Source: Candidatus Latescibacterota bacterium
Lineage (GTDB): Bacteria; Latescibacterota; UBA2968; UBA8231
Assembly (NCBI GenBank): GCA_965208105.1
Contig: OZ242318.1
Coordinates: forward strand, 2,048,001 to 2,112,000
Direction: 5' to 3'
Length of the DNA: 64,000 nucleotides
The number at the start of each line of letters is the position of its first letter. Within the stretch, counting starts at the first letter, position 1. Positions 1 through 60,062 of this stretch are shown here, piece after piece. A program made the translations under genes and the position numbers. Below the pieces are notes generated by a model. The model had not been told where the DNA came from and did no database searches. It saw only the letters and a list, made by a program, of their open reading frames with translations.

Positions 1-1176
1 GCCGACCTTGCCCGCAACCCCAACCGCCTCGCCCGCACTGTTTCGCAGCAGCACGGTTCCCGCCTTGCCGGGTTCGAACGCCAAACCGACCTCCGCCCGT
101 GTCGAGAACCGCTTCCCTTTCGGCAGACTCGTCGCAGGATGCTTGTCGCCGGACACAAGGTCCTGCTCGACATCTTTGGTCCTCCCCGAGGTGTGGAATG
201 TCCGAAGCGAGACCTCCGGAAAGGGGTGGCTGTTTATGAGCCAGCTTCGCTTGCTCTTCTGTCGGGCGTCGCCGATCCACAGGCCGCCTCCCTTTTCGAC
301 GAAACCGCGCAGCTTGCCTAGAAAGGGGTGTCCAGGCGCCATCGCCCGCGAATGATTCAAAAAGAAGGCCACGTTCGCGGTTTCCAGGTAGCCCTCGATG
401 GTTTCGATCTTGCAAGTGCCGTACGCCGGCACCTCGTCGATATCGAACTGCTCTCCTTCGGATAGCACCTTGAGAACGGGATGGAACCCCGTAACCACCC
501 TCAGGCGAGCCGACTGGTCGGGCTTCCACTGAAGCTGCGAACACAGAACTCTCTGGAGGGCCGTCTTCTCCTGGTCGCTCAACCTGTGGACGGTATCTGC
601 TCCGTCCACCGAGTTCTGGCGCGCCAAGTAGTCGACCCTCGCGTTTGCGAACTCTGTGAAACGTTGCTTCTGTTTCGGCGCGATGTGCGGAGCGAAGCTG
701 ACGCCCCATTCCCCGTCCTTAAGTCCGATGACGTGGCTTGGGAACAAGAAGTGTTTCCCCCGGTAATTCCAACGGAAGACGCTCATGCCGGGCGTGTGGC
801 CCGGAAAGTAGAACGCTTCGAGGTCAGAACCAAGCTTCAGCCCCTCGTCGCCGAACTCCTTCGCGGGACACTTCGTCTTCGTGCGAATGCCGGGGCGCTC
901 GGCTTCGTGGTAGCAAAGCTCGCTGCCGAACCGGTCGTAGAGCTGCTGGTGCAGATCGCCGCGCTTGGCGTCGTGGAAGTGGGGGACAAGCTGTAGGCTG
1001 ATACCTCCGAGCTTGTCGATCTCGTCGTAGTAATCCACAACGGACGAACCATTCTTGCAGTGACACACCAGGATGTTCCCCTGTTTTCGGACGAGCAGGT
1101 ATGTGTGACTAATGCCCCTGTCCTTGCGCCTGTGGGGGAAGTCGAACCGGTAGATGTTGGACAAGACGCGTTCCAT
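1..1176 (-). CDS. Cassette gene: MBL-fold-like N-terminal domain fused to a class I GATase/ThuA-like domain (3' end outside window)
   Basis: Own translation (not in ORF track): GGAGG RBS, ATG at 1176, MERVLSNIYRFDFPH...SHTYLLVRKQGNIL...HFHD...FPGHTPG...LRGFVEKGGGLWIGD, open to position 1. Confidence 0.7.
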   Translation of the reverse strand, partial: MERVLSNIYRFDFPHRRKDRGISHTYLLVRKQGNILVCHCKNGSSVVDYYDEIDKLGGISLQLVPHFHDAKRGDLHQQLYDRFGSELCYHEAERPGIRTKTKCPAKEFGDEGLKLGSDLEAFYFPGHTPGMSVFRWNYRGKHFLFPSHVIGLKDGEWGVSFAPHIAPKQKQRFTEFANARVDYLARQNSVDGADTVHRLSDQEKTALQRVLCSQLQWKPDQSARLRVVTGFHPVLKVLSEGEQFDIDEVPAYGTCKIETIEGYLETANVAFFLNHSRAMAPGHPFLGKLRGFVEKGGGLWIGDARQKSKRSWLINSHPFPEVSLRTFHTSGRTKDVEQDLVSGDKHPATSLPKGKRFSTRAEVGLAFEPGKAGTVLLRNSAGEAVGVAGKVG

Positions 1177-1270
1177 GGGTCCTCCATTATAGGGCGAAAC
1201 CGCCGAGTGAAGGATGCGGCCCGAGGTGCCGGCAGCTCCGCAGCTGCGGCTTGGACGCTCTCCTGCTGGC

Positions 1271-1353
1271 GGCTAACGTTTTCGCCGTGCCCGAACCGCG
1301 AATGCGGTTGCGCGAAGGGCGCATGCCCGAAGCCGGACACGGACGTGTTAGCG
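1271..1353 (-). repeat. attC-like site 1 (family A, CCGTGCCC stem)
   Basis: Top strand CGCTAAC-acgt-CCGTGTCC...GGGCACGG-cgaaaac-GTTAGCC; near-identical to the sites at 2060, 2879, 7704 and 10176. Confidence 0.9.
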
Positions 1354-1487
1354 GCTGTGGGCAACCCGGCACATCGGGTTTCTGCACCAGATGGATAGTC
1401 CCAGAGAATCCACGATGAAAGACAACGGAACACTGCAATTGAGTGTTGCCGTTGCCACATGTGATCTTGTTCGATCCACTACTGTGG

Positions 1488-2021
1488 TTACTCGGGTATC
1501 TCGAACACTTTGGCCAAGAAGTCATCTTTGTACCCGTTATTAGCGTCAGCCGTAGGAATTCCCTTGTTTACTGCACTCATTTTCAACGCGGCGTATTCAT
1601 CAAATAAATCAGGATCACTTAGCATTCTGTCTCTGAAAATCATAGCATCTCGGTATCGCTCCGAGTCTCTCGAGGTAATGTGAGCATGTATATTGAATTG
1701 GTTGCCGTCTGTTACGATCCCGGCGAACATGACGGGGGAGCTGTCATTACCCGAAGGCTCTCGCCAATCAGCATCGTGAAAGCCAAGTGATTTCAAAGTA
1801 GAGATGACCGCTGGTATCCTGTGTTCGTCAATGAGGACGAAGATGTCAATGATCGGCTTGCTAACCATGCCGGCAATCGATGTGCTCCCGAAGTGTGCAA
1901 CTTTACATGAAGTGACTTCCGATTCAACCAATTTTTTTATTCTGGAGAATACTCTCCCATAGATTGGATTGTGTGGAAGCATTTTCACGGGTTCGTATCG
2001 GTACCTTACAAGTTGTGTCAC
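1488..2021 (-). CDS. Cassette gene: GrpB/UPF0157 family nucleotidyltransferase-like protein
   Basis: HFGSTSIAGMVSKPIIDI and FRDRM...EYAALK motifs typical of GrpB. Confidence 0.85.
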   Translation of the reverse strand: MTQLVRYRYEPVKMLPHNPIYGRVFSRIKKLVESEVTSCKVAHFGSTSIAGMVSKPIIDIFVLIDEHRIPAVISTLKSLGFHDADWREPSGNDSSPVMFAGIVTDGNQFNIHAHITSRDSERYRDAMIFRDRMLSDPDLFDEYAALKMSAVNKGIPTADANNGYKDDFLAKVFEIPE

Positions 2022-2059
2022 CTCTCACCCTTTCTAACGTCCATTTCTATGCCCATTCC

Positions 2060-2142
2060 CGCTAACGATATCGCCGTGCCCGAACCGCGAATGCGGTTGC
2101 GTAAAGGGCGTAACCCCGAAGCCGGGCACGGACGTGTTAGCC
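2060..2142 (-). repeat. attC-like site 2 (family A)
   Basis: cgctaac...gttagcc palindrome; the stop codon of the 2137-2829 gene lies in its R'' box. Confidence 0.92.
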
Positions 2143-2829
2143 GTTGGGCCCCGCTTTAGAGGACAACCATTGAGCCAGAATCTCGGCGACACTGCTCATT
2201 GCCATCTGAAGATTTGTCTTGAAATCATCAGGTGCGGATTCGTCGGCATCGTCCGTGACTCCTCTCATCTCAAGGTACGGGACTTCGCTGAACCTGCACG
2301 CGCGCGCCCCGCCGGCGCCCTCCCAGGCGACAACCAGAGCTTGAGTCCGCTCACGAACCTGCACTCTCCGACTGGGTTCGACGATGTCCTCATCACCGCT
2401 TGCGATTACACCGAAGTGGACTTCGTGGCCCTCCACAGCCGCCGGCATCCCACGCAAACTCTGGAGCGCTGTCGGATCACCCTCGAATGAGGGCACCGGA
2501 CTGTCGTTGAACCTGTTGATGTAATCGTGCTCAACCGTTCGGGTGCCGACCACCACATCCCCGACGCGCAGTCCATCCGCCAGCCCCCCAGCGGCACCTG
2601 TGCAAATCACGAGGTCCCAACCTGATCCCGCATCCAGAAGATGCTGCAGCTGAACTCCGAACTGAGCCTTGCCTGTGCCACCCACCGCAAGAGTGAGTCC
2701 GAGGTCGGGGAACTGGGTGACAGGCAGCCGCCCTATGGTCTTAGCTCGTTGATCATGCCCGGCCGCCACGAGATCGTCGCGAATGGCTTCCAGCTCTTCT
2801 AGCATTGGTGCTACAGCGGCCACTTGCAT
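2137..2829 (-). CDS. Cassette gene: MTA/SAH nucleosidase (PNP/UDP family 1)
   Basis: VAPMLEELE, GGTGKAQ, TGAAGGL, GDVVVG, ASGDED, WEGAG, RGVTDDAD motifs. Confidence 0.85.
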   Translation of the reverse strand: MQVAAVAPMLEELEAIRDDLVAAGHDQRAKTIGRLPVTQFPDLGLTLAVGGTGKAQFGVQLQHLLDAGSGWDLVICTGAAGGLADGLRVGDVVVGTRTVEHDYINRFNDSPVPSFEGDPTALQSLRGMPAAVEGHEVHFGVIASGDEDIVEPSRRVQVRERTQALVVAWEGAGGARACRFSEVPYLEMRGVTDDADESAPDDFKTNLQMAMSSVAEILAQWLSSKAGPNG

Positions 2830-2878
2830 CTAATTCACATCCCAAGTGTCCCTTTGTGCTTCCCTTAGGGGGCCTTTC

Positions 2879-2952
2879 GGCTAACGTCCCCGCCGTGCCC
2901 GAACCGCGAAGCGGTTGCGCGGAGGGCGTAGCCGGGCACGGTCGTGTTAGCT
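2879..2952 (-). repeat. attC-like site 3 (family A, shortened)
   Basis: ggctaac...gttagct; contains the stop codon of the 2947-3435 gene. Confidence 0.92.
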
Positions 2953-3435
2953 GCTGGCTCTGTTCTCTCTCAGCCAATTTCTCAAGAAATCTGCTCTATC
3001 TGACCTGCCAAGTGCTTCGTACGCCGAACACTCGTAAGCCAAGTTTAGCACAGGAACCTGAATGCCTTCCGTTTCGACTGACAGTCTGTGCTCTGCAGGA
3101 TCAATTGGGTCCTCCCATGATCCATCTGAAAGAAGTTTTTGCACATCTCCCATGATCTCTACTCGTACTCCTCCGATTTCAAGCACACCAAAGTGAGATC
3201 GGATATTGCCAGAAGTCGAAAAACCTACCTTCTCGGTGGAGTACTCGCACAAGAGGTCTTCGATTTTGTAGGCCCCCGCGCCATCTGTTTGGAGATCAAT
3301 ATCGTGGACATCCACCGGCACTCCTTGCAATCGAAAACCCAAACTGCCGGTGATTGCCCAATTCACGTCGGCCCCATCGAGGCGCTCAACGACCTTGGCT
3401 AATGCTTGTCCGATCGTAGTAGGAACTGTAACCAT
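2947..3435 (-). CDS. Cassette gene: nucleotidyltransferase (Pol-beta superfamily, lincosamide/aminoglycoside NTase-like)
   Basis: WAITGSLG...HDIDL (GS + DxD) signature. Confidence 0.75.
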   Translation of the reverse strand: MVTVPTTIGQALAKVVERLDGADVNWAITGSLGFRLQGVPVDVHDIDLQTDGAGAYKIEDLLCEYSTEKVGFSTSGNIRSHFGVLEIGGVRVEIMGDVQKLLSDGSWEDPIDPAEHRLSVETEGIQVPVLNLAYECSAYEALGRSDRADFLRNWLRENRASS

Positions 3436-3451
3436 GTGCTTCGGAGCTTGC

Positions 3452-3552
3452 AGCTAACGTATTGCCAGTTTGCGAACGCCGAGCTTGTCGAGGCGTTTCC
3501 CGAAGGGACAAGGCGCCAAAAGGCGCCGAAGCGCAACACCGTGCTGTTATGC
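3452..3552 (-). repeat. attC-like site 4 (family B, CGGTTTGCG stem)
   Basis: agctaac...gttatgc; similar to the sites at 4271, 6804, 9502 and 12505. Confidence 0.9.
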
Positions 3553-3568
3553 GAAGATCGCCCTGACC

Positions 3569-4219
3569 CTAGTTCCGAGAACGTTCCAAAGCCAATCTTG
3601 CTCCCAATCCAACAAATATCACCCCTGCAAGACGCTGAATGGCCATCATGGCCCGAGTCGATGGCCGGAGCGCCCTTGACATCCTTGCAGCAAAGGTCGC
3701 CACAACTAGGCACCAAACAGTACCAGTGAATACGAACGTGCTACCCAAGACAAAGAATGCGAATGGTCTATAAGAGCTACTAGCGTCGATAAACTGGGGC
3801 AGAAATGCCAGAAAGAACATTGCAACCTTCGGGTTTAGGAGATTCGTGACTATGCCTCGCCGATATGTTGTCGTGACCCCTCTGAGATGCATTCCTTCGT
3901 TCGAACAAATGTCTGTCGACTGTCGGCGAAGCAGCATATCAACTCCCAAGTATACGAGGTACGCAGCGCCGAGTAGCTTCACTGCTGCGAAGGCAGCTGG
4001 CGACGTGGTTATTATGGCCGAGAGTCCCAGTGTTGCTAGCGCAAGATGAATAACGCCACCCGTGCTGACGCCGAGTGCTGATGCAAGCCCTGATATCCGA
4101 CCCTCCGCGACGCTGCGCGTGACGATGTAGATGGTATCCTGACCTGGTGTGATATTCAGAATAATGCCCGCCGTTACGAACACCCAGAAATTTACAATGC
4201 CGAGTGATTGGATATCCAT
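3569..4219 (-). CDS. Cassette gene: LysE/RhtB family exporter
   Basis: ITPGQD, GAAYLVYLG and NLLNPKVAMFFLAFLPQF motifs. Start at MDIQSL (alternative start 4243). Confidence 0.92.
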   Translation of the reverse strand: MDIQSLGIVNFWVFVTAGIILNITPGQDTIYIVTRSVAEGRISGLASALGVSTGGVIHLALATLGLSAIITTSPAAFAAVKLLGAAYLVYLGVDMLLRRQSTDICSNEGMHLRGVTTTYRRGIVTNLLNPKVAMFFLAFLPQFIDASSSYRPFAFFVLGSTFVFTGTVWCLVVATFAARMSRALRPSTRAMMAIQRLAGVIFVGLGARLALERSRN

Positions 4220-4270
4220 GTCCACCTCACAAATATGTTCCAAAATTTGACGAATCTACGGAGCGAATTC

Positions 4271-4361
4271 ACATAACGTTATGCCGGTTTGCGAACCCAC
4301 GAAGTGAATTGCCAAAGGCTAAGGCGCGAACAGCGCCGAAGCGCAAACCGTGCTGTTACCC
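4271..4361 (-). repeat. attC-like site 5 (family B; degenerate R'')
   Basis: acataac...gttaccc. Confidence 0.85.
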
Positions 4362-4390
4362 GATGTGTCAAACCACCCGACGCGCCGGCG

Positions 4391-4771
4391 CTACTTCACT
4401 GGCTCTCGAGGAACGGCACGAATTGCATCATCTAGCTGGCGCGACAATGGCGAAAATTCGGCACCAGATTTCGGATCAATCACTGCAATCGTGTAGTCAA
4501 CTGTGGTATCAGCGTAAACCTGAACAACCTTGTAGTCGATGGACGGGTTCGGATCCACAACGCGGATTGAATACTTAGCGCCCAACTCAGGAACATGCAC
4601 ATGGCGCATTTGTTTCAAAGCGTGCTCGACCCTTCGAACCGAAGACGAGTCACCTTGAACGACCAGCGATAATGGCTCTTCAGCGGGCTCGTCGCAGCTA
4701 GTCACCAGGAGTGCCCCTACTGCTGAACAGATAATCCAGAGTCGTGGTCGCATCATGTTCTGATCTCGCAT
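4391..4771 (-). CDS. Cassette gene: hypothetical lipoprotein
   Basis: Signal peptide with lipobox-like LVTSC; ATG directly after GTTATAGGAA. Confidence 0.65.
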   Translation of the reverse strand: MRDQNMMRPRLWIICSAVGALLVTSCDEPAEEPLSLVVQGDSSSVRRVEHALKQMRHVHVPELGAKYSIRVVDPNPSIDYKVVQVYADTTVDYTIAVIDPKSGAEFSPLSRQLDDAIRAVPREPVK

Positions 4772-4774
4772 TTC

Positions 4775-4865
4775 CTATAACGGGTTGCCGATGTGCGAAC
4801 TCGCGGAGCGAGTTGGCGAAGCCCCAAGGCCCGAATGGGCCGCAGCGCACAACGCGCTGTTATAC
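4775..4865 (-). repeat. attC-like site 6 (family B variant)
   Basis: ctataac...gttatac with the 4/7 spacer geometry. Confidence 0.88.
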
Positions 4866-4906
4866 GGCGTGAATCTCTGCTTCAGATTGAGCGCTATTTT
4901 CCTTAC

Positions 4907-5242
4907 TCAAATAGAGCAGTGTTGAGCCACGGGCACGACATCCGCCTGGCTCCGATCGTCCGAACCGGCCAGTCGAATCATCGTCGACTCATGGAGGAAG
5001 TCGTCGATGTCAAACCGTCTTGTAGGCCCGGGCAAGCCAAAGGACTGCTGCTCGAGCCCCTTCGCGAGTGAGGACTTGCCAGCGCAGTTCATCCCAGGGA
5101 TGCCAACGAGGTAATGCCGGGCGACTCCCTCAGCTCCTTCCGCGATCCGCTGGGCCACATGGTTCAGCAGGCCCGACTGTCGGACGCGAACGGTCGTGGT
5201 GTCTTGATCCGTCATCTCGCTTCCGATCTCACGACTCGGCAT
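4907..5242 (-). pseudogene. Truncated P-loop (uridine kinase-like) gene
   Basis: LVGIPGMNCAGKSS Walker A and DIDDFLH, then a stop after only ~100 aa. Confidence 0.55.
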
Positions 5243-5269
5243 GGGCCGCCATGCCTGATGGTTGCAAAT

Positions 5270-5328
5270 GGATAACGTCGCGGATCAGGCGCGGCTACTC
5301 GCCGTCGCCTGCATCCGGCTGGTTCGGC
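5270..5328 (-). repeat. Canonical 59-bp attC with extrahelical G (foreign type)
   Basis: Top strand GCCGAAC-cagcc-GGATgCAGGCG...CGCCTGATCC-gcgac-GTTATCC: 5/5 spacers and one unpaired G in L''. Confidence 0.88.
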
Positions 5329-6707
5329 GACCCTTCGTTCACATTTCGGAACCTGAAACTGTAAAGATCGGTATCCTTCATCTCGAATCGCAGACGAATA
5401 GTCTGTCCAGCCAACCGCTTCACATCGCTGCCGCTCTTCCAGGCAACGACGCAATCGATTTCGTCGCCTTTTAGGAGGCGGCATGCAACCAGTCCAAAGC
5501 CGTCGAGCGGCGTGCCTCTTTCGTCCTGGACTTCCACTCGCAGACTGCCGCCTTCCCGTGTAACGAAGTTCAGGACAAGTTGCCCGCCATCGAACGTGAT
5601 GGGCTTGGTCACCAATTCGCCCCCTTGGGTCCCGGCCCGGACTGATGCAAATCCGTCAACCCGGTACGTGAACCGGCGCAGCCTGGACTGTCCGGCGTCC
5701 TCGTACCCTTCGGAAGCATAGACGGAGACCTCCTTGTCTCCGGTCCGCACTATCCCCCACTGCATGTAATTGCCGCGATTGCCCTGGCGATCTTTCGGAG
5801 CGGTACGCGGGATCACCGGTTCCTTGCCCCAGAAATAGAACCGACGCCCGTTGCGACTGGCCATCAAGTAGGGCTCCGTCGATTCATCTTTCATCAGCCG
5901 CGTCGGAAAGCCGATATAGATTTGCGGTGCCCGCTCGTACGGCAGCACGGCGTTCGTGTACAGTTGAAACCCATCGCCGTAGACATCGGTGTTGGCGTAC
6001 GACAAACGTTCTGACCGGTCGTATTGCCATCTCTCGAAATCGTCTGAGGTAACAGTACGAATCATGCGCTGCTGGCCGTCCCACTCACGAAAAAACATGA
6101 CGTATGTCTTACGCAATGCATCCCAGAAAACCAGGTTCTGGGAATCGAAGAAGTGGCGTTGCCCCACGTGGATCTTTCCATCCGGAACAAGAGTCGGGTC
6201 ACCCTTATTGACCGGATGCCAATGAATGGCGTCCGACGACACGTAACCGTAAAGGGCGGCACTCCCCCGCTCCGCGATTGCCTTGTACCGGGCATGGGAC
6301 GGGCAGTCTGGATTGGTGTCTTTGAAGGGCGTGAAAGCGCTCGTGCCCAGCCTGGGATCGGAACCCAGAATCAGGTTGTTGGTTTTCGAGCCGGCGAACT
6401 CCACTAGTCCAAGACTTGGCTTATGCCAATGGATACCATCAGTACTTTGCGCATAACCCACACGGGGATTCTTCCAGTCGTCCCGGCGGCGGCCGGAAGC
6501 GCGATAGTACATCCGGTACGTCTCTGCATCTTTGAATATGGTAGCAGACATCGATGTGCAACCCTCCCACTGCGCGTCATACACCGCCGCCACCTCCCGC
6601 GGCACGGGTCTATGCAAATGCAGACGGACATCGTCCCCAATCCTGTCGATCAGCGCGTCATCTACAAACAACTGCCTGCGGTCCGCGATACTCTTCGGTT
6701 GTGTCAT
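5295..6707 (-). CDS. Cassette gene: five-bladed beta-propeller glycoside hydrolase-like protein (GH32/GH43 clan)
   Basis: AGGAGG RBS then MTQPKSIADRRQLFVDD; YAQSTDGIHW, SSDAIHW and FDSQN repeats. The C-terminus reads into the attC. Confidence 0.75.
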   Translation of the reverse strand: MTQPKSIADRRQLFVDDALIDRIGDDVRLHLHRPVPREVAAVYDAQWEGCTSMSATIFKDAETYRMYYRASGRRRDDWKNPRVGYAQSTDGIHWHKPSLGLVEFAGSKTNNLILGSDPRLGTSAFTPFKDTNPDCPSHARYKAIAERGSAALYGYVSSDAIHWHPVNKGDPTLVPDGKIHVGQRHFFDSQNLVFWDALRKTYVMFFREWDGQQRMIRTVTSDDFERWQYDRSERLSYANTDVYGDGFQLYTNAVLPYERAPQIYIGFPTRLMKDESTEPYLMASRNGRRFYFWGKEPVIPRTAPKDRQGNRGNYMQWGIVRTGDKEVSVYASEGYEDAGQSRLRRFTYRVDGFASVRAGTQGGELVTKPITFDGGQLVLNFVTREGGSLRVEVQDERGTPLDGFGLVACRLLKGDEIDCVVAWKSGSDVKRLAGQTIRLRFEMKDTDLYSFRFRNVNEGSPNQPDAGDGE

Positions 6708-6803
6708 TTCTCCTCCTTGTGCCATGGCGGTCTGGCCGCCCAACAAGGCCAAAGCGACTTTCAAAATGCATTATAATAACACCAATTCGTTTTTTCTCAT
6801 GCC

Positions 6804-6900
6804 GTATAACGTTGTGCCGGTTTGCGAACGCCGAGCTTGTTGAGGCGTTGCCGAAGGCCAAGCCGCCGTAGGCGGCGAAGCGGAAACAGGTGTGTTAGAT
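6804..6900 (-). repeat. attC-like site 8 (family B)
   Basis: gtataac...gttagat. Confidence 0.9.
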
Positions 6901-6949
6901 GAAGTGGGATTCAAACCAATGCCAAATCTGCATAGAAAACATCTTGAGA

Positions 6950-7594
6950 TCAGTCGCCGGTGCCTTGTCCGGTCAGTTGCGTCGTTTGGTTCAACGGCTT
7001 TCTCGCCACGGCCTTGTTGATTGGGTGCGTGTGCCGAATACTACCCGGATGCTCATCCTCAATGGTGTAGCTCTCTTCTAATTCGATGTCCCAATCCTCA
7101 TAGAGTGAGAACAATTTGCCTTCTTGGAACAGTCCGAGGCAGTGCGCTTCCAGATCCGCTGGCGGAGGAATCCTGTCAGTGAAAACGACAACGACGTTCG
7201 TGCCGCCCGGAATTGTATGAGACTTGAATTCCGAGACTAACTTCATCCATTGTTTTCGAGCGATCAGATGCAGACACCCGTGCGAGACAATGAGGTCGAA
7301 CTTGCCAGAGAATGAATACTGACGCATATCAGCGACATCGGCGCGTATGCTGATTCCATCACGGTCCGCCAGCATTTGCAACTTCCGGATGCCTGACTCC
7401 GAAATATCGACTGCCGTAACATCAAACCCCTGCTTCGCAAGGAAGAGTGCATTCCGTCCTTCTCCGCAACCTAAGTCCAAAACTTTTGCTCCCTGCACCA
7501 TCTGATTTGCAAGTTCTAGGATCTCAGCACTCGGATCGCCAAATGTCTTAGCCTCAAGATCCGCGTACCCTTTGGTCCATGGAAAATCAATCAT
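6950..7594 (-). CDS. Cassette gene: class I SAM methyltransferase (TehB-like)
   Basis: VLDLGCGEGRNALFLAKQGFDVTAVDIS; C-terminal HPG..H.H. Start MIDFPW (ORF extends to 7705). Confidence 0.88.
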   Translation of the reverse strand: MIDFPWTKGYADLEAKTFGDPSAEILELANQMVQGAKVLDLGCGEGRNALFLAKQGFDVTAVDISESGIRKLQMLADRDGISIRADVADMRQYSFSGKFDLIVSHGCLHLIARKQWMKLVSEFKSHTIPGGTNVVVVFTDRIPPPADLEAHCLGLFQEGKLFSLYEDWDIELEESYTIEDEHPGSIRHTHPINKAVARKPLNQTTQLTGQGTGD

Positions 7595-7703
7595 CGAATT
7601 CACTGGCTGTCGAACTTGCGCTTGAGTGGCGACTATGAAAGTATATCTCCAGAAAAATATTGGGAGATACACTGCAAGGCCCCGACTATACTTTTCCCAT
7701 TTC

Positions 7704-7785
7704 ATCTAACGTTCTCGCCGTGCCCGAACCGCGAAGCGGTTGCGCGAAGGGCGAAAGCACGAAGCCGGGCACGGACGTGTTACCT
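7704..7785 (-). repeat. attC-like site 9 (family A)
   Basis: atctaac...gttacct. Confidence 0.92.
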
Positions 7786-7831
7786 GCCGTGGCCATCCTG
7801 CACGAATGAAAAATTCCTCGTAGCAGCCGAT

Positions 7832-8629
7832 TCACACCTCTGGCTTAAAGCCTACGGCGCGACACCACGCAAAGGCCGCATAGGCATCGGGAGATACCGA
7901 CCACTCCTCCCAGGCTTCGGTTATTGCTTTCAACTCGTCATCTGTAGCAAGTCCGTGTTCTTGCGCGTTCTGAACAAAGGCTCCGTCCTGGAAGTAGTGC
8001 ACTTGTCTGCTCCCAAACGTCTTCACTTTGTCCTCAGTTCCATAGCAGAGATATTTGGAAGTGGCAGTCACATCATTAAAACTCGCGCCATTCAATAGAC
8101 CGCGAAGTTCGCGGCCGCAATATGGACCGCCGGTGCCTTTCAGAGTCCAGAGCTGCTCTCGAATTGAATAGCTGCGTCGAAGTAAGGACGAACGTGGTCC
8201 GCTGACGATGAAACCACCGTATTCCACGTCTGCGATTCCTAATACCCCACCGGGTTTGAGGACGCGCTTCACCTCCAGGAGTGCGTCTTGTGGGCGATCC
8301 AGGGTCTCGGCCACCGAGTGGCAGAGGCAGGCATCGAAGCTATTGTCTGCGAAATCGAGTTTGTAAACATCACCGACGCAAAAATCAATGTTTCCAATCG
8401 CGTGGACGCGAGCATACGTTTCAGCATCTCCGAAACCATCATCGCTAAGATCAACACCGACTACGCTACGCACCTTCTCGGCCACACCCAAAGCAATGCT
8501 TCCGCCACCGCATCCTACGTCCAGGACTTTGAACTCTGGTGCCAAGTGTGGAAACAGGAACTCGGCATAATCGTCCGCGTTCCGGCCGGCCATGTAGTCT
8601 TCAAAGCTCATGCCAAAGGTGTCTTCCAA
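7832..8629 (-). CDS. Cassette gene: class I SAM-dependent methyltransferase (UbiE-like)
   Basis: VLDVGCGGG, LDFADNSFD and RVLKPGG motifs. Confidence 0.9.
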   Translation of the reverse strand: MEDTFGMSFEDYMAGRNADDYAEFLFPHLAPEFKVLDVGCGGGSIALGVAEKVRSVVGVDLSDDGFGDAETYARVHAIGNIDFCVGDVYKLDFADNSFDACLCHSVAETLDRPQDALLEVKRVLKPGGVLGIADVEYGGFIVSGPRSSLLRRSYSIREQLWTLKGTGGPYCGRELRGLLNGASFNDVTATSKYLCYGTEDKVKTFGSRQVHYFQDGAFVQNAQEHGLATDDELKAITEAWEEWSVSPDAYAAFAWCRAVGFKPEV

Positions 8630-8645
8630 TGCGGAAAGCCATGGC

Positions 8646-8803
8646 AGGTAACGTTCTTAAGTGGCCGAACTGGCAAAGCCACAACTCATCCTAACCGCTG
8701 TGCCGCTCGGGCAGCCACTACTCCTTCCCAACGTCCGCACGTTAGGGCCAGTTGGGACGGAGGCCGCCGCAGGGCGGCCGCAGCCGGCCACTGTGTGTTA
8801 TGC
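8646..8803 (-). repeat. attC-like site 10 (long, 158 bp, unique sequence)
   Basis: aggtaac...gttatgc; AGTGGCCG/CGGCCACT stem with the same 4/7 spacers. Confidence 0.8.
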
Positions 8804-8856
8804 GAAGGTGCCCCCCGAGGCTACCCGCACCGCGTTCCACTACCCTCACAATGCTG

Positions 8857-9450
8857 TCATGTCGAGGTCCTCAATAGATGACGAACGGGCTCGTCAGACC
8901 ACAGCTGCACCTCAATGAACCGCTCCACAGGTGTCCCCCAGTAGTTGTCGTATTCAACTCGAGGCATTCCGTACTCCCCGATCACGGCCTCAAGTTCATC
9001 GATGAGGTACACGCGATCGTGATACGGTCTCGCCTCCTGGCGCGGGATTCCGAAATCCGCCCCGAAACCCATGGCCTCGAAACTGTCAGAATAGGTGAAG
9101 CTAGTGACGGGTGACGGGAGGTCGTTCAGAGCGACCACGACTTCCTTGGTGTCGGGAGCGAGCTGCTTGAACCACTCGGATCTACCCAGGACAAAGTAGT
9201 GTGGAGCGCTCCGCTCGGGCCGTCCGCCCCGGGCGACGAAGAGGCCTCGGAGCCGTTCCTCCGTCAGCCGTCGCATTTCAATATACTTGCGGCCGAACGG
9301 CCGCTTGTGATCACGGACTCGTCGGAGTTCCTGAAGCCCCTGCCGCACACCCTCAAGGTCTGTCTCAGCGAGGTCTGACAGGTTCAGAAACGGATGTCTG
9401 TCGGACAGGTGATAGTGCGTTACGAATTCTGGAATCTTCAATCGCGCCAT
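8857..9450 (-). CDS. Cassette gene: hypothetical protein
   Basis: 197-aa ORF filling a cassette, GGAG RBS; no family recognised. Confidence 0.75.
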   Translation of the reverse strand: MARLKIPEFVTHYHLSDRHPFLNLSDLAETDLEGVRQGLQELRRVRDHKRPFGRKYIEMRRLTEERLRGLFVARGGRPERSAPHYFVLGRSEWFKQLAPDTKEVVVALNDLPSPVTSFTYSDSFEAMGFGADFGIPRQEARPYHDRVYLIDELEAVIGEYGMPRVEYDNYWGTPVERFIEVQLWSDEPVRHLLRTST

Positions 9451-9501
9451 CTCCGACTACCGCTAGGACCCCTCCCTTCCAAATACGTTCCTGGCACTTT
9501 T

Positions 9502-9591
9502 GCATAACGTTCTGCCGGTTTGCGAACCCGCGCAGCGGGTTGCCGAAGGCCAAGGCGCGTCTGCGCCGCAGCGAAAACCGATGTGTTATCT
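9502..9591 (-). repeat. attC-like site 11 (family B)
   Basis: gcataac...gttatct. Confidence 0.9.
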
Positions 9592-9634
9592 GACATGCAA
9601 TTCGGTGAGCTCCAAGTCGAATAGATGCATTCCT

Positions 9635-10084
9635 CTATACGAACTCCTGAGCACGTACAGTGAATGGTGAAGTTGTATATGACTGAAACAAAACCCGCCC
9701 ATCAAATGACAGAAGCTGCCGAAGCCTTCGGCTGTAGCCAGGGTGATCTATCATCTTATCGGCATCTGTCTTCTGAACCCACGAAACATCAAGAGTCTCC
9801 TCTCCAATCCGGGCGTCGCCAGACAACCAAGATCCAAGGAAATCGAAAATAACTCGACGCTCACTAAGGTTGGTATACACCCCAACAAGTCGATTAGCCG
9901 AGGCCAGGATGTTGGCCTCTTCTCTGACTTCACGGATGACCCCATCGAGGATGGACTCACCTTCCTCTATTTGGCCACCTGGAAACTCCCACCCCCTTCG
10001 TGGGGTTTTAACCAGAAGGACATCGTCTCCTCGTTCCACGAGAATTCCAGCAGCGACGATATGTTTCGGTGGGTTCGGATGCAT
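9635..10084 (-). CDS. Cassette gene: NUDIX hydrolase
   Basis: Nudix box PGGQIEEGESILDGVIREVREEAN. Confidence 0.92.
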   Translation of the reverse strand: MHPNPPKHIVAAGILVERGDDVLLVKTPRRGWEFPGGQIEEGESILDGVIREVREEANILASANRLVGVYTNLSERRVIFDFLGSWLSGDARIGEETLDVSWVQKTDADKMIDHPGYSRRLRQLLSFDGRVLFQSYTTSPFTVRAQEFV

Positions 10085-10175
10085 TTGTTGCCTTCAGGAT
10101 GACCTTAAATTCCGGTCGATTCGGAATATCCAACCGGACGGGGATGGTAAGATAGTAGCCAAAAAAATGCATGTC

Positions 10176-10258
10176 AGATAACGTTCTCGCCGTGCCCGAA
10201 CCGCGAATGCGGTTGCGCGAAGGGCGAATGCCCGAAGCCGGGCACGGACGTGTTATAG
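10176..10258 (-). repeat. attC-like site 12 (family A)
   Basis: agataac...gttatag. Confidence 0.92.
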
Positions 10259-10302
10259 GATGTGCCAGATTGGGTGGAGGGGAAAGACATTCCACCAGCA
10301 CA

Positions 10303-10799
10303 TTATGTCCAATATTTTCGGCAGATAAAGGCCAATTCATAGAGAGCCGCGAAATCCTGGTCGTCAGCGGAAAACAGATCTGTTGCCTTATCGTACTCGA
10401 TAGTCCGCACTTCAGTGATCGAACCTCCCGCACATGAATGGGGTGGGGGAAATGAGGTAGCCTGGGCTGGGCCTCTTGTGAAACGCAATGGTACATCCCG
10501 ATCGGTTTGACGTGGCTCAAAGCTGCGCCCGTTTCCTCCATCATTTCCCGATGTGCAGCCTGCAACTAGCTCTCCCCAGGTTCCAGCGTCCCGCCAGGCA
10601 ACACCCACCTGCCATTCTCGCGACGGGTCACGAGGCACTCAGTCGCCGAGACAAATGGAATTACATAGGACGAGCCGCAACACGAATCTACGACTTCGCG
10701 ATCGAAATTGACGAAATCAATGCCCTGCCTCCCGCGATCCCGCAATGCTGGAAGATCTCGGACAAATCTGTCGAAATCTGAGTCATCCAGAGATTTCAC
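10303..10799 (-). pseudogene. Cassette gene: NUDIX hydrolase, disrupted
   Basis: LPGGTLEPGES*LQAAHREMMEETG: in-frame TAG at 10566-10568 inside the Nudix box, plus a frameshift/deletion near 10437. Confidence 0.8.
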
Positions 10800-10822
10800 A
10801 GCACTTCCCTATCTGGCATTTC

Positions 10823-10910
10823 CTATAACGTTCCCGCGGGCTGCGAACCCGTGCAGCGGGTTTTCTGCGAAGGCGCGAATGCGCCGAAGCCGTAGCCCGT
10901 CGTGTTAGCC
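10823..10910 (-). repeat. attC-like site 13 (family C, CGGGCTGCG stem)
   Basis: ctataac...gttagcc. Confidence 0.88.
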
Positions 10911-10962
10911 GTGTGTGCAGCCCGCACTGGCCTTGCCAGGACGGCAAGGCCTCTTGATTTGC

Positions 10963-11514
10963 TTAGGCATCCGTGGGACCAGGCGACCAGCCGATCGATT
11001 GGGCCCAACCGTCCGCACGGGACATGATTTCCCAGATTATTGGATTTTTTGAATCGGTGTACCTCTTCCTGTCCTCTCGGTACTTCATAGCCAACTCCCG
11101 TTTAACCTTCTCGTAACGTTTCTGCTCTTCCAAGTGTTCTCGGAGATAGTCACGAAACAACAAGGCGAACTGCTCAGACCAGCTGCCAGCCTTGCGGACG
11201 TGGATATGTGTTCGTCTCTTCCCTGGCAGTTCTCGAAAATACCGCTTTGTCCTTTCAGGGTTGTCCTTCCGCCAGATGTAGCCAATTTGCTCCAGCGGAA
11301 CTCGAAACGGATCAACGGGGTCGAGTTCCTTCACTGAAATCTGCACATCAATGATGGGCTTGGCTGCCAGACCTGCGATTGAGGTAGATCCAATATGGTC
11401 AATCCGGATCGCCACGTTCCCAAGAGCTTCCTTCATCCTGATCCCGAGCTCGCGGAAGAGCATTGGCCACTCATCCGAGTAGTCCTTGATCTCAATCACG
11501 TAAGGTGTCGTCAT
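10963..11514 (-). CDS. Cassette gene: GrpB/UPF0157 family protein
   Basis: IDHIGSTSIAGLAAKPIIDVQ, HIHV and LLFRDYLR motifs; start MTTPY. Confidence 0.92.
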   Translation of the reverse strand: MTTPYVIEIKDYSDEWPMLFRELGIRMKEALGNVAIRIDHIGSTSIAGLAAKPIIDVQISVKELDPVDPFRVPLEQIGYIWRKDNPERTKRYFRELPGKRRTHIHVRKAGSWSEQFALLFRDYLREHLEEQKRYEKVKRELAMKYREDRKRYTDSKNPIIWEIMSRADGWAQSIGWSPGPTDA

Positions 11515-11584
11515 TGATCGACTGCTCAGTTCATGGATTTGGCGGCGCAGGAGGCGCCGCCGCATTCTTTGCGGGCTGCATTAC

Positions 11585-11687
11585 GGCTAACGTTCTCGCG
11601 GGCTGCGAACCTGCCGCAGGCAGGTTTCCTGCGAAGGCCGAATGGCCGGAGCCGCAGCCCGCCGCAGCGTAAACCGCTGTGTTATCG
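11585..11687 (-). repeat. attC-like site 14 (hybrid family B/C)
   Basis: ggctaac...gttatcg; family C body with an extra family B arm. Confidence 0.85.
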
Positions 11688-11712
11688 GAAGGTCAATACA
11701 TCCCTCGCGTGC

Positions 11713-12489
11713 CTACTTGACCGCCAAAAGGTTGATCCTGCGGAAGGTTTCGAAACACGTGCCATCCGTTTGACGCGTCTCCTCAACCATTCGTTTTGTT
11801 ACAACCTCGTGAAATCGACTCCCTGTTTCAGAATCGAGGTACTGCTTGAATGGTATCACTGCCGGATGGTCAACCCAACCTAACATTGTCTGCGTATCGG
11901 GGAAGAATCGATCAGCGTTCTCTCCCCATACCCGCAGACTCGAAAAGGATGAGTTTCCTACGAGCTTCTCGTATGCTTCCACTGAAGGCATGTACCAAGG
12001 CCATTCGAAATCTGAAAAAGCTCCGGAAAATTCCTCGCTGGCCATTACCTCCAAGGCTACACGATTGAACGTGCCGCAGTTCCCCTCACCTGCAAAATTA
12101 ACCCTAACTACGCCAGAGCGTTTGAGAGCACGACAAAAGATCTCGAGGAGCATCTGGTGGTCCTTGATCCAGTGCAAAGTGGCATTGGAGAATATCACAT
12201 CGAACTCGTCCTGAAATTCTGCGTCGAGAATATCGATCAGTCGGAACGAAAGATTGGCTCGGTGGATATTCTGTGCCGCCTCGATCATTCCTTCAGAGGT
12301 GTCGATTCCAACAACTGAACCGGCGGAAACTGCGTCAGCGAGATTCGCGGTGAGGGTGCCGTCGCCGCAACCTACATCCAGAATGCACTCGTTGCCGGCG
12401 AGATCAAGTTCGTCGATCAATCGCGCTCCCCATTCTTTCTGGTGAGCGGACGTCTCCTGGTAGCGCTTTCCGTCGAAATCTACTCTCAA
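11713..12489 (-). CDS. Cassette gene: trans-aconitate methyltransferase-like SAM methyltransferase
   Basis: ILDVGCGDG and FDVIFSNATLHWIKD. Probable TTG start at 12489; the ORF-track extension reads through the attC. Confidence 0.85.
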   Translation of the reverse strand: MRVDFDGKRYQETSAHQKEWGARLIDELDLAGNECILDVGCGDGTLTANLADAVSAGSVVGIDTSEGMIEAAQNIHRANLSFRLIDILDAEFQDEFDVIFSNATLHWIKDHQMLLEIFCRALKRSGVVRVNFAGEGNCGTFNRVALEVMASEEFSGAFSDFEWPWYMPSVEAYEKLVGNSSFSSLRVWGENADRFFPDTQTMLGWVDHPAVIPFKQYLDSETGSRFHEVVTKRMVEETRQTDGTCFETFRRINLLAVK

Positions 12490-12504
12490 CTCACTTTGAC
12501 TTTC

Positions 12505-12600
12505 CGATAACGTTCCGCCGGTTTGCGAACGCCGAGCTTGACGAAGGGTTGCCGAAGGCCAAGGCGCGACAGCGCCGCAGCGCAAACCGTGCTGTTAGAT
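12505..12600 (-). repeat. attC-like site 15 (family B)
   Basis: cgataac...gttagat. Confidence 0.92.
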
Positions 12601-12624
12601 GAAGCTCTCTCAGAAGTCAGATCT

Positions 12625-12990
12625 TTACGCGTCAATGGCTTCACGTGTAACGGATGGTTCGAAAAAACGCTCCTGGAACTCCGTCAAAGCCAGGATCTGC
12701 TCGTCTGAGTAGTCTCTACCGGCAGGTACGACAATGAGCTTATCATCATCGTCGTCCGATCGTTGAATGACGGCGATACATCTGCCTGTAAAAGCCTCTA
12801 TCGGTTTGAAGACACCCAGGATATAGGCGTCCATATTTTCTCCGTCAGGCGCCGGAACGTCCGGAAGAAATCCGTAGTTGACAGGATAGATGAAGCCCGC
12901 TTCAGGATGCCTGGAGCCAAGGGGTCGATCAATCGTAAGATCGACCATTTCTCCGATGAACTTCCTCGCATCCACGAAATTCCCCGCCAT
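12625..12990 (-). CDS. First cassette gene: short inorganic pyrophosphatase family protein
   Basis: YPVNYGFLP, DGENMDAY and DDDDDKLI motifs. Confidence 0.88.
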   Translation of the reverse strand: MAGNFVDARKFIGEMVDLTIDRPLGSRHPEAGFIYPVNYGFLPDVPAPDGENMDAYILGVFKPIEAFTGRCIAVIQRSDDDDDKLIVVPAGRDYSDEQILALTEFQERFFEPSVTREAIDA

Positions 12991-13043
12991 GGTCGTTTAA
13001 TCTCCCAGCCATGTTGAAGTGAGGCAACGCTGCTCCGAGTTTC

Positions 13044-13080
13044 ATCTAACTGCCTGTATGCGAACCATTGGTTCGTATAA
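13044..13080 (-). other. attI-like primary recombination site (crossover G/TT at 13050/13049)
   Basis: The last GTTAGAT is not preceded by an attC stem; it lies between the first cassette and the integrase. Confidence 0.75.
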
Positions 13081-13260
13081 TGGCCGCCAAGTGCTACCTA
13101 TCTGAAACGAAGGTACCTATTGTTGTGAACAGTCGCAACCAGTATCCTCGAGGTCGTATATTCTCGTAACTCTTTGCGACTGTTCGAGATATATCGATTC
13201 TTCTGAGGTCCGGCGCATCTGGCATGCATTTCTCTGGCAAAGGTTTGGAGTATGCACGCA

Positions 13261-14190
13261 ATGCGGAAATATCGCGGACACCCGGGCCTGACCGATGAAG
13301 AGGTAGCTGTCCTCAGCCGGGTCGAGTTGGAGCTGAAGCTGAGGGGATACGCCAGGAAGACGCGGAAGTCGTACATGGGCCACTGCCGGCGATTCCTTCA
13401 ATGGAAACGGGGCTACCGCGGCTAAGGGCAGGAGGAAGTGCGGTCGCATCTGGGTTGGCTCCTCGCCCGGGGGGTGAGCCGCTCCGCCTTCAACACCACC
13501 TACAGTGCCTTGAGCTTTCTCTATAGGGAAGTTCTGATGCAGCCCGCCTCCCTGGAGAGGCTGCGAAGACCGAGGGGCGGACGGCAGCTTCCCGAAATCC
13601 TCAGCCAGCGGGAAGTGCTGCGTATCCTCGATTCTCTCCGCAATCCGAAGCACCGGCTCATCCTTGCCCTGCTGTATGCCGGGGGCCTGCGTGTGGGAGA
13701 GGTCGTGCGTCTCAAGGTGAGCGATATCGACAGCGATCGCATGCTGATCCGCGTTCGCCAAGGCAAGGGACGAAAAGACCGATATACCTTGCTGCCCCGG
13801 TCGATTCTCGAGGATCTCCGGTCTTACTGGAAGGCGTACCGGCCGTCGACATGGCTGTACCCCGGAGCCCGGGAAGGACGGCATCTCACCGAACGGTCGG
13901 TGCAGAAGATGTTCTCCCGTGCGGTCGTCGCCGCGGGAATCCGCAAACGGGTGACCGTGCACACCCTGAGACACAGCTTTGCGACGCACCTGCTCGAAGG
14001 GGGAACCGATCTGCGCTACATCCAGGAGCTCCTCGGGCACAGAAACTCGAAAACGACGGAAATCTACACCCACGTGCAGCGCAAGGACCTGGTGCGCATC
14101 GAGAGTCCGCTCGACGCGCTGTTGGGTCACGGCGGTAGCCCTGAGCAGGTTAGAGGACGCACCTTTCCGCGCCACGGCGATGAGAGGTGA
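13261..14190 (+). pseudogene. Integron-associated tyrosine recombinase (N-terminal SAM-like + catalytic domain) with in-frame TAA at codon 55
   Basis: MRKYRGHPG...ELKLRGYARKTRKSYMGH...YRG*GQEEVRSHL; catalytic GLRVGE, GKGRKDR, HTLRHSFATHLLE, LLGH and TTEIYTH are intact. Confidence 0.88.
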
Positions 14191-14406
14191 TGGGTTAAAC
14201 GATCGCTGGTCCTCGTTGTCCTGTAGCTGTCCATCTGGTGATAGATGATTCCGGTAGGCTAGACGACGGATATGCAGACCTCGTCGAGGTCGATAGCGGG
14301 TTCTTCAGCACCCACTGACCTGATGCCCTTGAGACCAGGAGCGAATTGGGTTTAATTTCCCATCTTCCATGCAGGTTACGATCTTCCATGTTAGGAGGAT
14401 GACGCC

Positions 14407-37800: not shown

Positions 37801-38199
37801 CCCCGGACTCCTCGACGGTTCCCTGGGCCTTGGCGCTTTCCCGGTAGGGTTGCGCAGGGCCCGGTCCGGCATATTGCATCAGTTACGGGATTTTACGAAA
37901 CAGGAAGGAAACTACTGAAACGGGAAGGATGGTGCCGAGGGCCGGAGGAAAACCAACAACGTAGGCCAATAATTTACTAAATGATACAAATCCACCTTGC
38001 CGACTTTTCCCACAATTTTACCCACTAAATTGTCCTAATTTCCCGGATGCAAAGCGCCATTTTGCACAGCTTAGAAAATCCTAAAACCGCTATGTTTACA
38101 TATTGGAACTGTCCCACTAATATTTCGTCTAAGGATGTCCTAATCATTGCAACAAGTGGTCGTTTTACCCTCGAATGTGGAGTTACCCCGGTTTGGTGG

Positions 38200-38370
38200 G
38201 AGAAGTGGACCCCATTCTTTGGACAGCCAGGCAGCCTGATTAAGGTGGATTCCTTGTGGTTGATTTGCTGCCCTGTCCTGCTTTTTCCTGGTTTCTCTGA
38301 GGCCACCTTTCCGACTTGGCTGGAGGGCCGTTTTGCTGGTTGACGGGATAGACCACCCGGGCTTCAGCAC
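38200..38370 (-). mobile_element. Solo remnant of IS3-family right end
   Basis: About 160 bp, clearly similar to 39043-39210 including the IR (GGACCCCATTCTTTGGACAG). Confidence 0.75.
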
Positions 38371-38448
38371 AGCGCGGTAGCTATCCGCGCCCTCCATGTG
38401 GCTTATTCATTGGGGCTCCCGGCCTTCATTGCGATTTATTCTCTCGAG

Positions 38449-39018: not shown

Positions 39019-39042
39019 TTAATTCGATTTTCTATCAGGACA

Positions 39043-40435: not shown

Positions 40436-40456
40436 AGCGACACCACTTACAACGTT

Positions 40457-50738: not shown

Positions 50739-50801
50739 GGACTAACTCCTTTAATACGGTAATATGGTATTTCGATGCCTCCCGCAGGGAGGCCCTCATC
50801 A

Positions 50802-59197: not shown

Positions 59198-59206
59198 TTT
59201 TATTGA

Positions 59207-60036: not shown

Positions 60037-60062
60037 GTTATTTCCTTTGAATGGCAGGCCGG

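Follow-up and report, generated by a model that had tools for sequence, protein, structure and literature searches.

The stretch analyzed here (the window) comprises 64,000 nt of contig OZ242318.1, positions 2,048,001–2,112,000, from the genome of a Candidatus Latescibacterota bacterium (GCA_965208105.1; G000), which is assembled as one contig of 4.85 Mb. The left 14 kb, with a G+C content of 0.53–0.57 compared with 0.66 beyond 14 kb, holds a cassette array, an attI site and a divergent tyrosine recombinase gene. This platform has the layout of an integron: a recombinase gene, an attI and promoterless cassettes of one gene, each with an imperfect hairpin site (att site) at its end. The initial annotation of this DNA had listed 14 att sites, an attI and a divergent recombinase with the residues R-K-H-R-H-Y, all of which are present in the sequence. 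The main features are as follows.

1–13043, minus strand: in-window part of the cassette array; one open reading frame (ORF) per interval, each then followed by an imperfect inverted repeat
13044–13251, no strand assigned: attI, from the crossover box to the recombinase start, 208 bases; box ATCTAAC on the plus strand at 13044–13050
13052–13084, no strand assigned: imperfect palindrome within attI, 4 nt away from the crossover box; arms 13052–13067 and 13069–13084
13252–14190, plus strand: tyrosine recombinase gene, IntI-like, without I2 insert; 312 codons, divergent from the array
13423–13425, plus strand: in-frame TAA at codon 58 of the recombinase gene

The recombinase matched Phage_integrase (PF00589, 140.1 bits) and the N-domain Phage_int_SAM_4, and its catalytic residues R147, K172, H237, R240, H263 and Y272 are intact, each lying in an invariant alignment column. 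As had been annotated, 59 residues separate KDR from HTLRH and no ALERKY-type block is present; the spacing from K-x-x-K-x-R to H-x-L-R-H is 99–100 residues in canonical integron integrases (IntI). The missing part is an insert of 31+10 residues (LPxALxRKYPxA..W.W) that occurs in IntI1, a cyanobacterial plasmid IntI and the IntI of two relatives, and is absent from the window protein and four members of its family. The best NCBIfam match was TIGR02249 ("integron integrase") at 234.9 bits, below the cut-off of 265, and it was split into two stretches with profile positions ~180–235 skipped; a canonical relative scored 465.6 bits. That is, the recombinase does not score as a normal IntI. The archaeal XerA model NF040815 (cut-off 220) gave 211.9 bits for the window protein and 210.7 bits for P0001, an uninterrupted database protein 98% identical to it, and the scores for the XerC/XerD models were also below their cut-offs (TIGR02224, 180 vs 335; TIGR02225, 181.9 vs 329.6). 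By sequence, the best Protein Data Bank match was VchIntIA (2a3v, 164.4 bits), ahead of XerA, with residues 190–209 of the query opposite residues 178–239 of the chain. The AlphaFold model of P0001 (predicted local distance difference test score 81) also had 2a3v as its best Foldseek match (E 1.4e-16) and showed no additional helix between 193 and 211; the archaeal XerA structures 4a8e and 5hxy were next-best by sequence and by fold. Together, the family scores, the structure matches, the absent insert and the intact catalytic residues characterize the predicted protein as an IntI-like enzyme without I2. We predict that the IntegronFinder intI_Cterm profile would miss it, since the region that this profile models is absent. 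Canonical IntI was absent from G000, in which all 7 TIGR02249 matches were below the cut-off and the window recombinase was the best of them.

The 14 att sites lie between 1271 and 12600, between single minus-strand genes. A covariance model (R1), built from 30 sites of G000 and related genomes, recovered exactly these 14 sites in the window, all as plus-strand matches, with E values of 7e-21 to 1.3e-09. Listed in the orientation of the array with their model scores, they are as follows.

12505–12600, minus strand: att site 1 (CGGTTTGCG type), 63.7 bits
11585–11687, minus strand: att site 2, composite, with an additional hairpin on the R''–L'' arm, 60.9 bits over 11585–11675
10823–10910, minus strand: att site 3 (CGGGCTGCG type), 80.4 bits
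10176–10258, minus strand: att site 4 (CCGTGCCCG type), 81.9 bits
9502–9591, minus strand: att site 5, 73.4 bits
8646–8803, minus strand: att site 6, long (158 nt), AGTGGCCG type, 44.2 bits
7704–7785, minus strand: att site 7, 78.2 bits
6804–6900, minus strand: att site 8, 68.2 bits
4775–4865, minus strand: att site 9, 56.5 bits
4271–4361, minus strand: att site 10, 64.8 bits
3452–3552, minus strand: att site 11, with an additional base within the L stem, 52.3 bits
2879–2952, minus strand: att site 12, 61.3 bits
2060–2142, minus strand: att site 13, 74.0 bits
1271–1353, minus strand: att site 14, 75.7 bits

On the minus strand, a site reads xxxTAAC, 4 nt, an L'' stem of 9–10 nt, a variable branched middle, L', 7 nt and GTTAxxx. 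This is the geometry first reported (TAAC-4-L''...L'-7-GTTA, with three quoted L stems), and the one site then singled out for an extra G is the fourth from the left, at 3452–3552. In site 2, a second L''-like segment folds a small hairpin of its own, as if two site types had been fused. No match to Rfam was found within 1–14400. The array extends ~21 kb to the left of the window: in L134, a locus label for the 20 kb left of the window, R1 gave 21 additional matches, bringing the total to 35 model sites across the 34 kb searched, and one more site lies at genome position 2,026,779. A crude scan of all 4.85 Mb listed 32 sites, 18 of them in the main array, 3 near 1.04–1.08 Mb, 3 near 2.74 Mb and 8 scattered with unlike geometry. 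With 18 of the 32 sites in the array and 6 in two satellite clusters, the repeats are distributed far from randomly. The satellite clusters (1,041,319–1,079,646 and 2,738,875–2,746,464) each hold three att sites that match the main array in type and orientation, and resemble attC-site clusters in which an integron integrase is lacking (CALINs).

The outer triplet of R' was perfectly complementary to the next R'' at 12 of the 14 window junctions, including that of attI with site 1, where the attI crossover box is fully complementary to the R'' of the first cassette. Between the two ends of one site, such complementarity was found in 0 of 14 cases, the chance rate being 1 in 64. In the distant arrays described below, the corresponding counts were 50/79 consecutive junctions vs 19/129 within sites. 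When exchange takes place within the R box, the outer triplet stays with the cassette that follows, and complementary junction triplets result, as in integron cassettes. At the level of sequence, the match of the variable R' outer triplet with the R'' of the next cassette thus indicates that site-specific exchange within the R box put the cassettes together. The sole junction with a 0/3 triplet match is that between the R' of site 9 and the R'' of site 10 (4271–4865), where a site or a cassette may have been lost.

We folded the plus (bottom) strand with DNA parameters. Most sites formed an R helix ending in a G·T pair, a 4-nt bulge on the 5' (R'–L') arm, a 2-bp helix and an unbroken 9-bp L stem followed by a branched top; the 2-bp helix lies within the 4/7 spacer, and its CG/CG and GC/GC forms covary. 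One base was bulged on the 3' (R''–L'') arm in 10 of the 14 window sites. The initial statement that the sites mostly lack extrahelical bases therefore holds for the L stem and not for the whole hairpin, since one spacer base can bulge in these 10 sites. In a MAFFT alignment of the 30 sites, 82.4% of cells paired compared with 70.5% in shuffles (0/500 as high). The values for 81 model-aligned sites, in an alignment that leans towards the model, were 88.4% and 69.6% (0/500 as high); 20 of the 25 pairs varied on both sides, and slid controls reached at most 42.9%. A G after AAC on the bottom strand, with a T partner, was present in 77 of the 81 sites, and the top-strand equivalent is an A·C mismatch. 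In the distant sites, G and T occupied these two positions in 120 and 114 of 135 cases, respectively. The bottom strand folded more stably than the top strand in 11/14 window sites and 98/135 distant sites.

These features bear on an alternative in which the element is the same and the recombinase acts on double-stranded DNA in the manner of Xer or XerA, through two exchanges between directly repeated R' junctions, the hairpins being incidental (e.g., terminators or cassette insulators). Without I2, a second strand exchange may or may not be avoided; therefore, a duplex, Xer-like reaction is the main rival. Its attractions are the XerA architecture of the protein, the NF040815 scores of distant array-linked members, which pass the cut-off (221–239 bits vs 220), the XerA structures as next-best fold matches, and the absence of I2, to which a block on the second exchange is ascribed in IntI (PMC4792948; here and below, published statements are taken from excerpts of the papers cited). 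In addition, most R' junctions read as a short AAC|GTT palindrome. However, features that are meaningful only in a folded single strand are kept across phyla, namely the G·T pair (77/81), the 4-nt bulge on one side and the greater stability of the bottom strand; the L stems stay paired through compensatory changes while their sequence drifts; and the duplex has no second inverted binding arm 6–8 bp from the R box. We therefore regard a duplex reaction as unlikely. The short palindrome arises where RAAC precedes R' (e.g., 10176–10190), which is the case in 12/14 window sites and ~77/135 distant sites.

We compared the sites with canonical attC sites. In the class 1 attC sites of aadB and blaVIM-1, the spacers measured 6 and 5 nt and the 3' arm carried 2 and 3 single-base bulges, and two bulges 6 nt apart were present in attC sites adjoining canonical IntI in four genomes from the same bacterial family. 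The extrahelical bases of attC lie on the R''–L'' arm (Bouvier et al. 2009, PMC2727003). In a gapped rescan, at least 2 extra bases on this arm were found in 13 of 18 canonical sites, in 0 of 22 close-clade sites (exactly one in 16) and in 8 of 138 distant I2-less sites; the spacer asymmetry was +1 in 11 of the canonical sites, +4 in 17 of the close-clade sites and +2 to +4 in 121 of the distant sites. This contrast in bulges within one bacterial family supports a co-variation of enzyme and site; the co-evolution proposed earlier we infer. At 9 loci adjoining canonical IntI, R1 found no match. Since 7 I2-less arrays (L042, L043, L063, L082, L054, L045 and L138) escaped it as well, its silence on canonical sites is weak evidence.

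The attI was aligned among G000 and the close relatives G001, G016, G014 and G010. It is conserved from the TAAC core to the start codon, and nothing is alignable to the left of TAAC, where each of the five genomes has a different first cassette. The symmetry of the attI palindrome is kept by compensatory changes across the five genomes. Its GAAC...GTTC core may resemble LexA-type operators, and the palindrome could be a regulator site or a second recombinase-binding arm. A simple scan of 12900–13400 detected no sigma-70-like promoter and no terminator.

Among 5.8 billion proteins searched, the window recombinase has a close clade at 74–98% identity and, below it, a very large family at 50–60%; the family comprises 4058 clusters (50% identity) at E up to 1e-30 (HMMER), and the insert is absent in all 17 homologues aligned with the window protein. 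Intact recombinase copies occur in G001 (91% identical), G016 and G014 among 40 related genomes, and the G010 copy is frameshifted before the catalytic tyrosine. Arrays were counted in the four close relatives with usable flank (the G011 contig was too short to count), and arrays of the same type were found on the attI side in G001, G016, G014 and G010:C2, with 6, 5, 5 and 13 model matches, respectively. None of these four relatives encodes a canonical IntI. Meanwhile, 8 of 41 related genomes do, and one of them, G008, has both a canonical and an I2-less enzyme, each adjoining its own site type.

We then considered a set of 80 distant loci from named genomes, in which the recombinase is 43–58% identical. 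The site density was 0.448/kb downstream of the gene, 0.060/kb upstream and 0.065/kb in shuffled sequence, and the longer spacer was on the R' side in 113 of 135 downstream sites. Of the 32 loci with a downstream stretch of 3 kb or longer, 24 had at least 2 sites, and 59/61 cassette ORFs were on the recombinase strand. The motif spacing was 58–62 residues in 73/80 loci, i.e., the insert is absent. Four of the other seven were unmeasurable; for one of these, L042, the NCBIfam alignment shows no insert. An I2-like spacing of 101 residues in L026, L045 and L052 was rejected as a pattern artefact, since NCBIfam aligns all three in one stretch with no insert. Among the carriers are Desulfitobacterium (12 sites in 9 kb), Clostridia, Flavobacteriaceae, Spirosomataceae, Ignavibacteriota, Nitrospirota, Atribacterota, Spirochaetota and an Altarchaeum, and thus Bacillota, Bacteroidota and Archaea. 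Cultured carriers are Desulfitobacterium sp. Sab5 (NZ_CP172056.1), Winogradskyella epiphytica CECT 7945, Seonamhaeicola aphaedonensis CECT 8487 and Arundinibacter roseus DMA-K-7a. The association of homologues with such arrays, which the initial annotation had made its test, was found in the four close relatives and at these 24 loci, and the system is not confined to the window lineage; it spans many phyla. For most family members, the array is downstream of the gene and runs in the same direction, whereas the window clade is divergent (the "classical" arrangement). Many distant members have an additional ~80–100 N-terminal residues with a conserved Y..G..W......W..P, which are absent from the window clade. 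The family also reaches a mobilizable plasmid, Pontibacter kalidii pls1 (L138, 8359–14800), where a member of 485 aa (47% identical) has a long N-terminal extension. After it come small ORFs in the same orientation, an IS110 insertion and two 3/6-type sites whose triplets are complementary.

The array could instead be a CALIN, made by a canonical IntI that is now lost or located elsewhere, with an unrelated Xer-like gene adjoining it. CALINs are common, and canonical IntI are present among the related genomes at the frequency given above. However, the same pairing of gene and array recurs in the close relatives and across phyla, the conserved attI abuts the recombinase gene, the canonical IntI of the same family go with a different site type, and in G008 each enzyme keeps to its own. 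Moreover, no canonical IntI was found in G000, in the four close relatives or in five named array-bearing genomes searched. We therefore consider this explanation very improbable.

A tree of 105 proteins, built without XerA, E. coli XerC/XerD and IS91-linked sequences, placed canonical IntI in one clade (9 rows, Shimodaira–Hasegawa-like approximate likelihood-ratio test (SH-aLRT) 99) on a long stem, with I2 confined to it. The IntI-like group was set apart from the Xer-like genes of G000 itself (SH-aLRT 94, long branches). The backbone of the tree is a polytomy, so the tree gives no verdict on whether the I2-less state is ancestral, and a secondary loss of I2 is compatible with it. This is relevant to a second alternative, a decayed integron, in which an IntI that lost I2 is dead and has left a fossil array; the stop in the window gene and the frameshift in the G010 copy would fit such decay. 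In contrast, the I2-less form is a large conserved family of 4058 clusters with invariant catalytic residues, intact copies exist in G001, G014 and G016, and the cassette content is entirely turned over between congeners. Decay of this kind is accordingly hard to credit.

The turnover was assessed between G000 and its congener G001. Their attI sequences are 87% identical over 214 nt, and they have zero cassettes in common (20 kb vs 41 kb compared). The window stretch or parts of it occur in 24 public runs from 9 studies labelled as sponge or marine metagenome, a listing that is not evidence of habitat. From four runs (X1, X2, X5 and X23), only contigs joining across were used, and uncovered stretches were not taken as absence. 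At the position of the TAA, contigs of three runs have a sense codon and those of the fourth agree with the window; intact recombinase copies exist in other populations and in sister genomes. Meanwhile, the premature stop indicates that the array in this assembly is probably frozen. Among 15 listed cassette joints in other orders, 12 have both ends inside att sites, two more are at most 13 nt away and one is unrelated. One X2 contig matches 13048–13716, follows attI to the crossover box and then continues as unlike sequence. The contigs cross the repeats at 90% likeness, and the support that they lend to cassette shuffling is therefore weak.

We consider it likely that the array is a sedentary chromosomal integron of a distinct lineage, whose integrase comes from a large IntI-related, XerA-like family that never had or lost I2. 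More tentatively, and with somewhat less than even confidence, we suggest that integron-type cassette capture takes place without I2 more widely; that is, a XerA-like sister or ancestral family would run bulge-poor, spacer-asymmetric arrays in many phyla and on at least one mobilizable plasmid, and canonical integrons would be a derived branch that added I2 and L-box extrahelical bases.

In the mechanism that we propose, the bottom strand of the att site (the plus strand of the window) would fold, as in integrons, and would probably present the R helix and the L stem separated by roughly the footprint of one recombinase; added together, the two spacer arms measure 11 nt here (7+4), as they do in the class 1 controls (6+5). 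One monomer would bind the R helix, including the near-invariant G·T pair beside AAC, and a second would bind the unbroken 9-bp L stem. The exchange would then occur at AA|C, with attI or a further att site as partner. Strand and polarity would be set by the asymmetric central spacer (the 4-nt bulge on the R'–L' arm) and not by L-box extrahelical bases docked on I2; a one-sided spacer without L-box bulges would fit an enzyme that has no I2 to dock them. For attC, recombination is reported to persist after removal of the extrahelical bases, although strand choice is weaker, and the unpaired central spacer can then set polarity (Bouvier et al. 2009, PMC2727003). This account of how the I2-less family recombines its sites is one that we infer.

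Several observations weigh against the interpretation of a distinct integron lineage. The recombinase gene of the window itself is broken by the stop. In IntI1, I2 is reported to be necessary, and single-strand recombination is described as exclusive to I2-bearing enzymes (PMC7790495); single-strand recombination by an I2-less enzyme is accordingly a proposal. The scanner requires YAAC...GTTR cores and an ungapped stem and thus favours bulge-free sites, a bias that the gapped rescan lessens but does not fully remove, and the canonical set used for comparison is small, with 18 sites, a few of which may be false. Of the 32 distant loci with 3 kb or more of downstream sequence, 8 had fewer than 2 sites. 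In L137 (Sinorhizobium fredii plasmid, 5013–7067), a 44% identical member sits immediately upstream of an IS91 family transposase and lacks an array, which is a different use of the same protein family. In the tree, the IntI stem rises from a polytomy of I2-less groups (41/102 inner branches open). Finally, the joint contigs were placed at 90% likeness across repeated att sites and may be assembly paths.

The cassettes of the array carry three methyltransferases, two GrpB, a NUDIX, a LysE, a phosphorylase, a pyrophosphatase-like and an aminoglycoside-2''-adenylyltransferase-like gene. The ORFs are as follows, with Pfam matches where noted.

12625–12990, minus strand: cassette 1, pyrophosphatase-like (PF00719, 34.1 bits)
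11713–12585, minus strand: cassette 2, methyltransferase (Methyltransf_31, 73.8 bits)
10963–11565, minus strand: cassette 3, GrpB (PF04229, 164.8 bits)
10303–10638, minus strand: cassette 4, no family
9635–10084, minus strand: cassette 5, NUDIX
8857–9450, minus strand: cassette 6, no family
7832–8629, minus strand: cassette 7, methyltransferase
6950–7705, minus strand: cassette 8, TehB-like methyltransferase
4907–6764, minus strand: cassette 9, two ORFs (5295–6764 and 4907–5242), with an R'-like remnant near 5278 between them
4391–4771, minus strand: cassette 10, no family
3569–4243, minus strand: cassette 11, LysE translocator
2947–3435, minus strand: cassette 12, aminoglycoside-2''-adenylyltransferase-like (PF10706, 89.7 bits)
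2137–2829, minus strand: cassette 13, PNP_UDP_1 phosphorylase
1488–2021, minus strand: cassette 14, GrpB
1–1176, minus strand: ORF of the next cassette, which runs off the window

The listed TTG start of cassette 2 falls within att site 1; therefore, its true start is probably further in. In cassette 9, the R' of site 8 is complementary to the R'' of site 9, and the remnant between the two ORFs (..ACGTTAT.., ~5270–5284) is unpartnered and may be a decayed site that fused two cassettes. PF10706, the family of cassette 12, is also that of the class 1 cassette gene aadB. The gene after the recombinase encodes a PhyH dioxygenase, and no IS91 family transposase lies beside the recombinase. Comparison of synteny between G000 and the four relatives showed no shared gene order downstream of the recombinase. 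Elsewhere, the window holds type I-C CRISPR-Cas genes at 48271–53023 on the minus strand, including Cas8c/Csd1 (570.6 bits) and a Cas3 HD-helicase, as well as sulfatase genes. Two other stretches of low G+C content (38001–42000 and 58001–62000; 0.51–0.56 compared with ~0.65 around them) may be acquired DNA.

The system shares with integrons (class 1 and the Vibrio cholerae superintegron) a recombinase, an attI and co-oriented promoterless cassettes in the same order, hairpin sites of the form R''–L''...L'–R' with YAAC/GTTR cores, an R box outer triplet that travels with the next cassette, and cassette genes typical of integrons (GrpB, methyltransferases, NUDIX and ANT(2'')-like). The G after the AAC of R' on the bottom strand is likewise noted for attC (Bouvier et al. 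2009, PMC2727003). Unlike in integrons, the window recombinase has no I2/ALERKY insert and is below the TIGR02249 cut-off, the spacers are 7/4 instead of ~6/5, the L stem is unbroken with 0–1 bulged bases instead of 2–3, the gene mostly points the same way as the array in the family (the divergent window clade apart), and the family occurs in phyla where integrons are said to be rare, such as Bacillota and Bacteroidota (PMC9024848). The system is thus integron-like but fails two defining integron features, the I2 insert and the extrahelical bases.

XerA resolves chromosome dimers at a single dif site. The window protein shares domain architecture, length and the absence of the insert with XerA/NF040815; however, the genes of its family abut multi-site cassette arrays and an attI, and the window protein falls short of the 220-bit cut-off. 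IS91-associated tyrosine recombinases are ~44% identical and also lack the insert, but there the IS91 transposase follows directly (L137) and no array is present, whereas the window has the PhyH dioxygenase gene instead. Unlike a CALIN, the window array has a related recombinase and a conserved attI attached, a link that recurs across genomes. No gene of the window has the IntI-specific region, so that domain-based tools would probably still file the array as a CALIN (PMC4889954).

In the full-text literature, taken without supplements and subscription journals, we found no description of I2-less array-linked recombinases. The excerpts of Cury et al. (2016) state that recombinases without intI_Cterm near attC "are not IntI" and report that 50 of 18,808 recombinases co-localised with attC, four of them intermediate and each with fewer than 3 attC sites; these 50 (Supplementary Figures S1 and S5) may include members of the present family. 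In the portions used, IntegronFinder 2.0 describes integrons as extremely rare in Firmicutes and few in Bacteroidetes, and Ghaly et al. (2022) describe archaeal IntI as having the additional domain of IntI. Escudero et al. (2016) present the origin of I2 and attC as a chicken-and-egg paradox (PMC4792948), and Escudero et al. (2020) treat I2 and single-strand recombination as exclusive to IntI, with no intermediates known (PMC7790495).

In the field, integron integrases are defined by the I2 insert, and the detection tools rest on that definition. If the family is active, cassette arrays of the att type predate or bypass I2, integron-like gene capture reaches phyla reported to be nearly integron-free, many CALINs gain a candidate enzyme, and the question of origin becomes testable in cultured, harmless carriers. 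For synthetic biology, the family also provides a second and simpler recombination system that is structure-specific. Finally, the system may show how integrons arose; if canonical integrons are indeed the derived branch that added I2, it would answer whether attC or I2 came first (PMC4792948).

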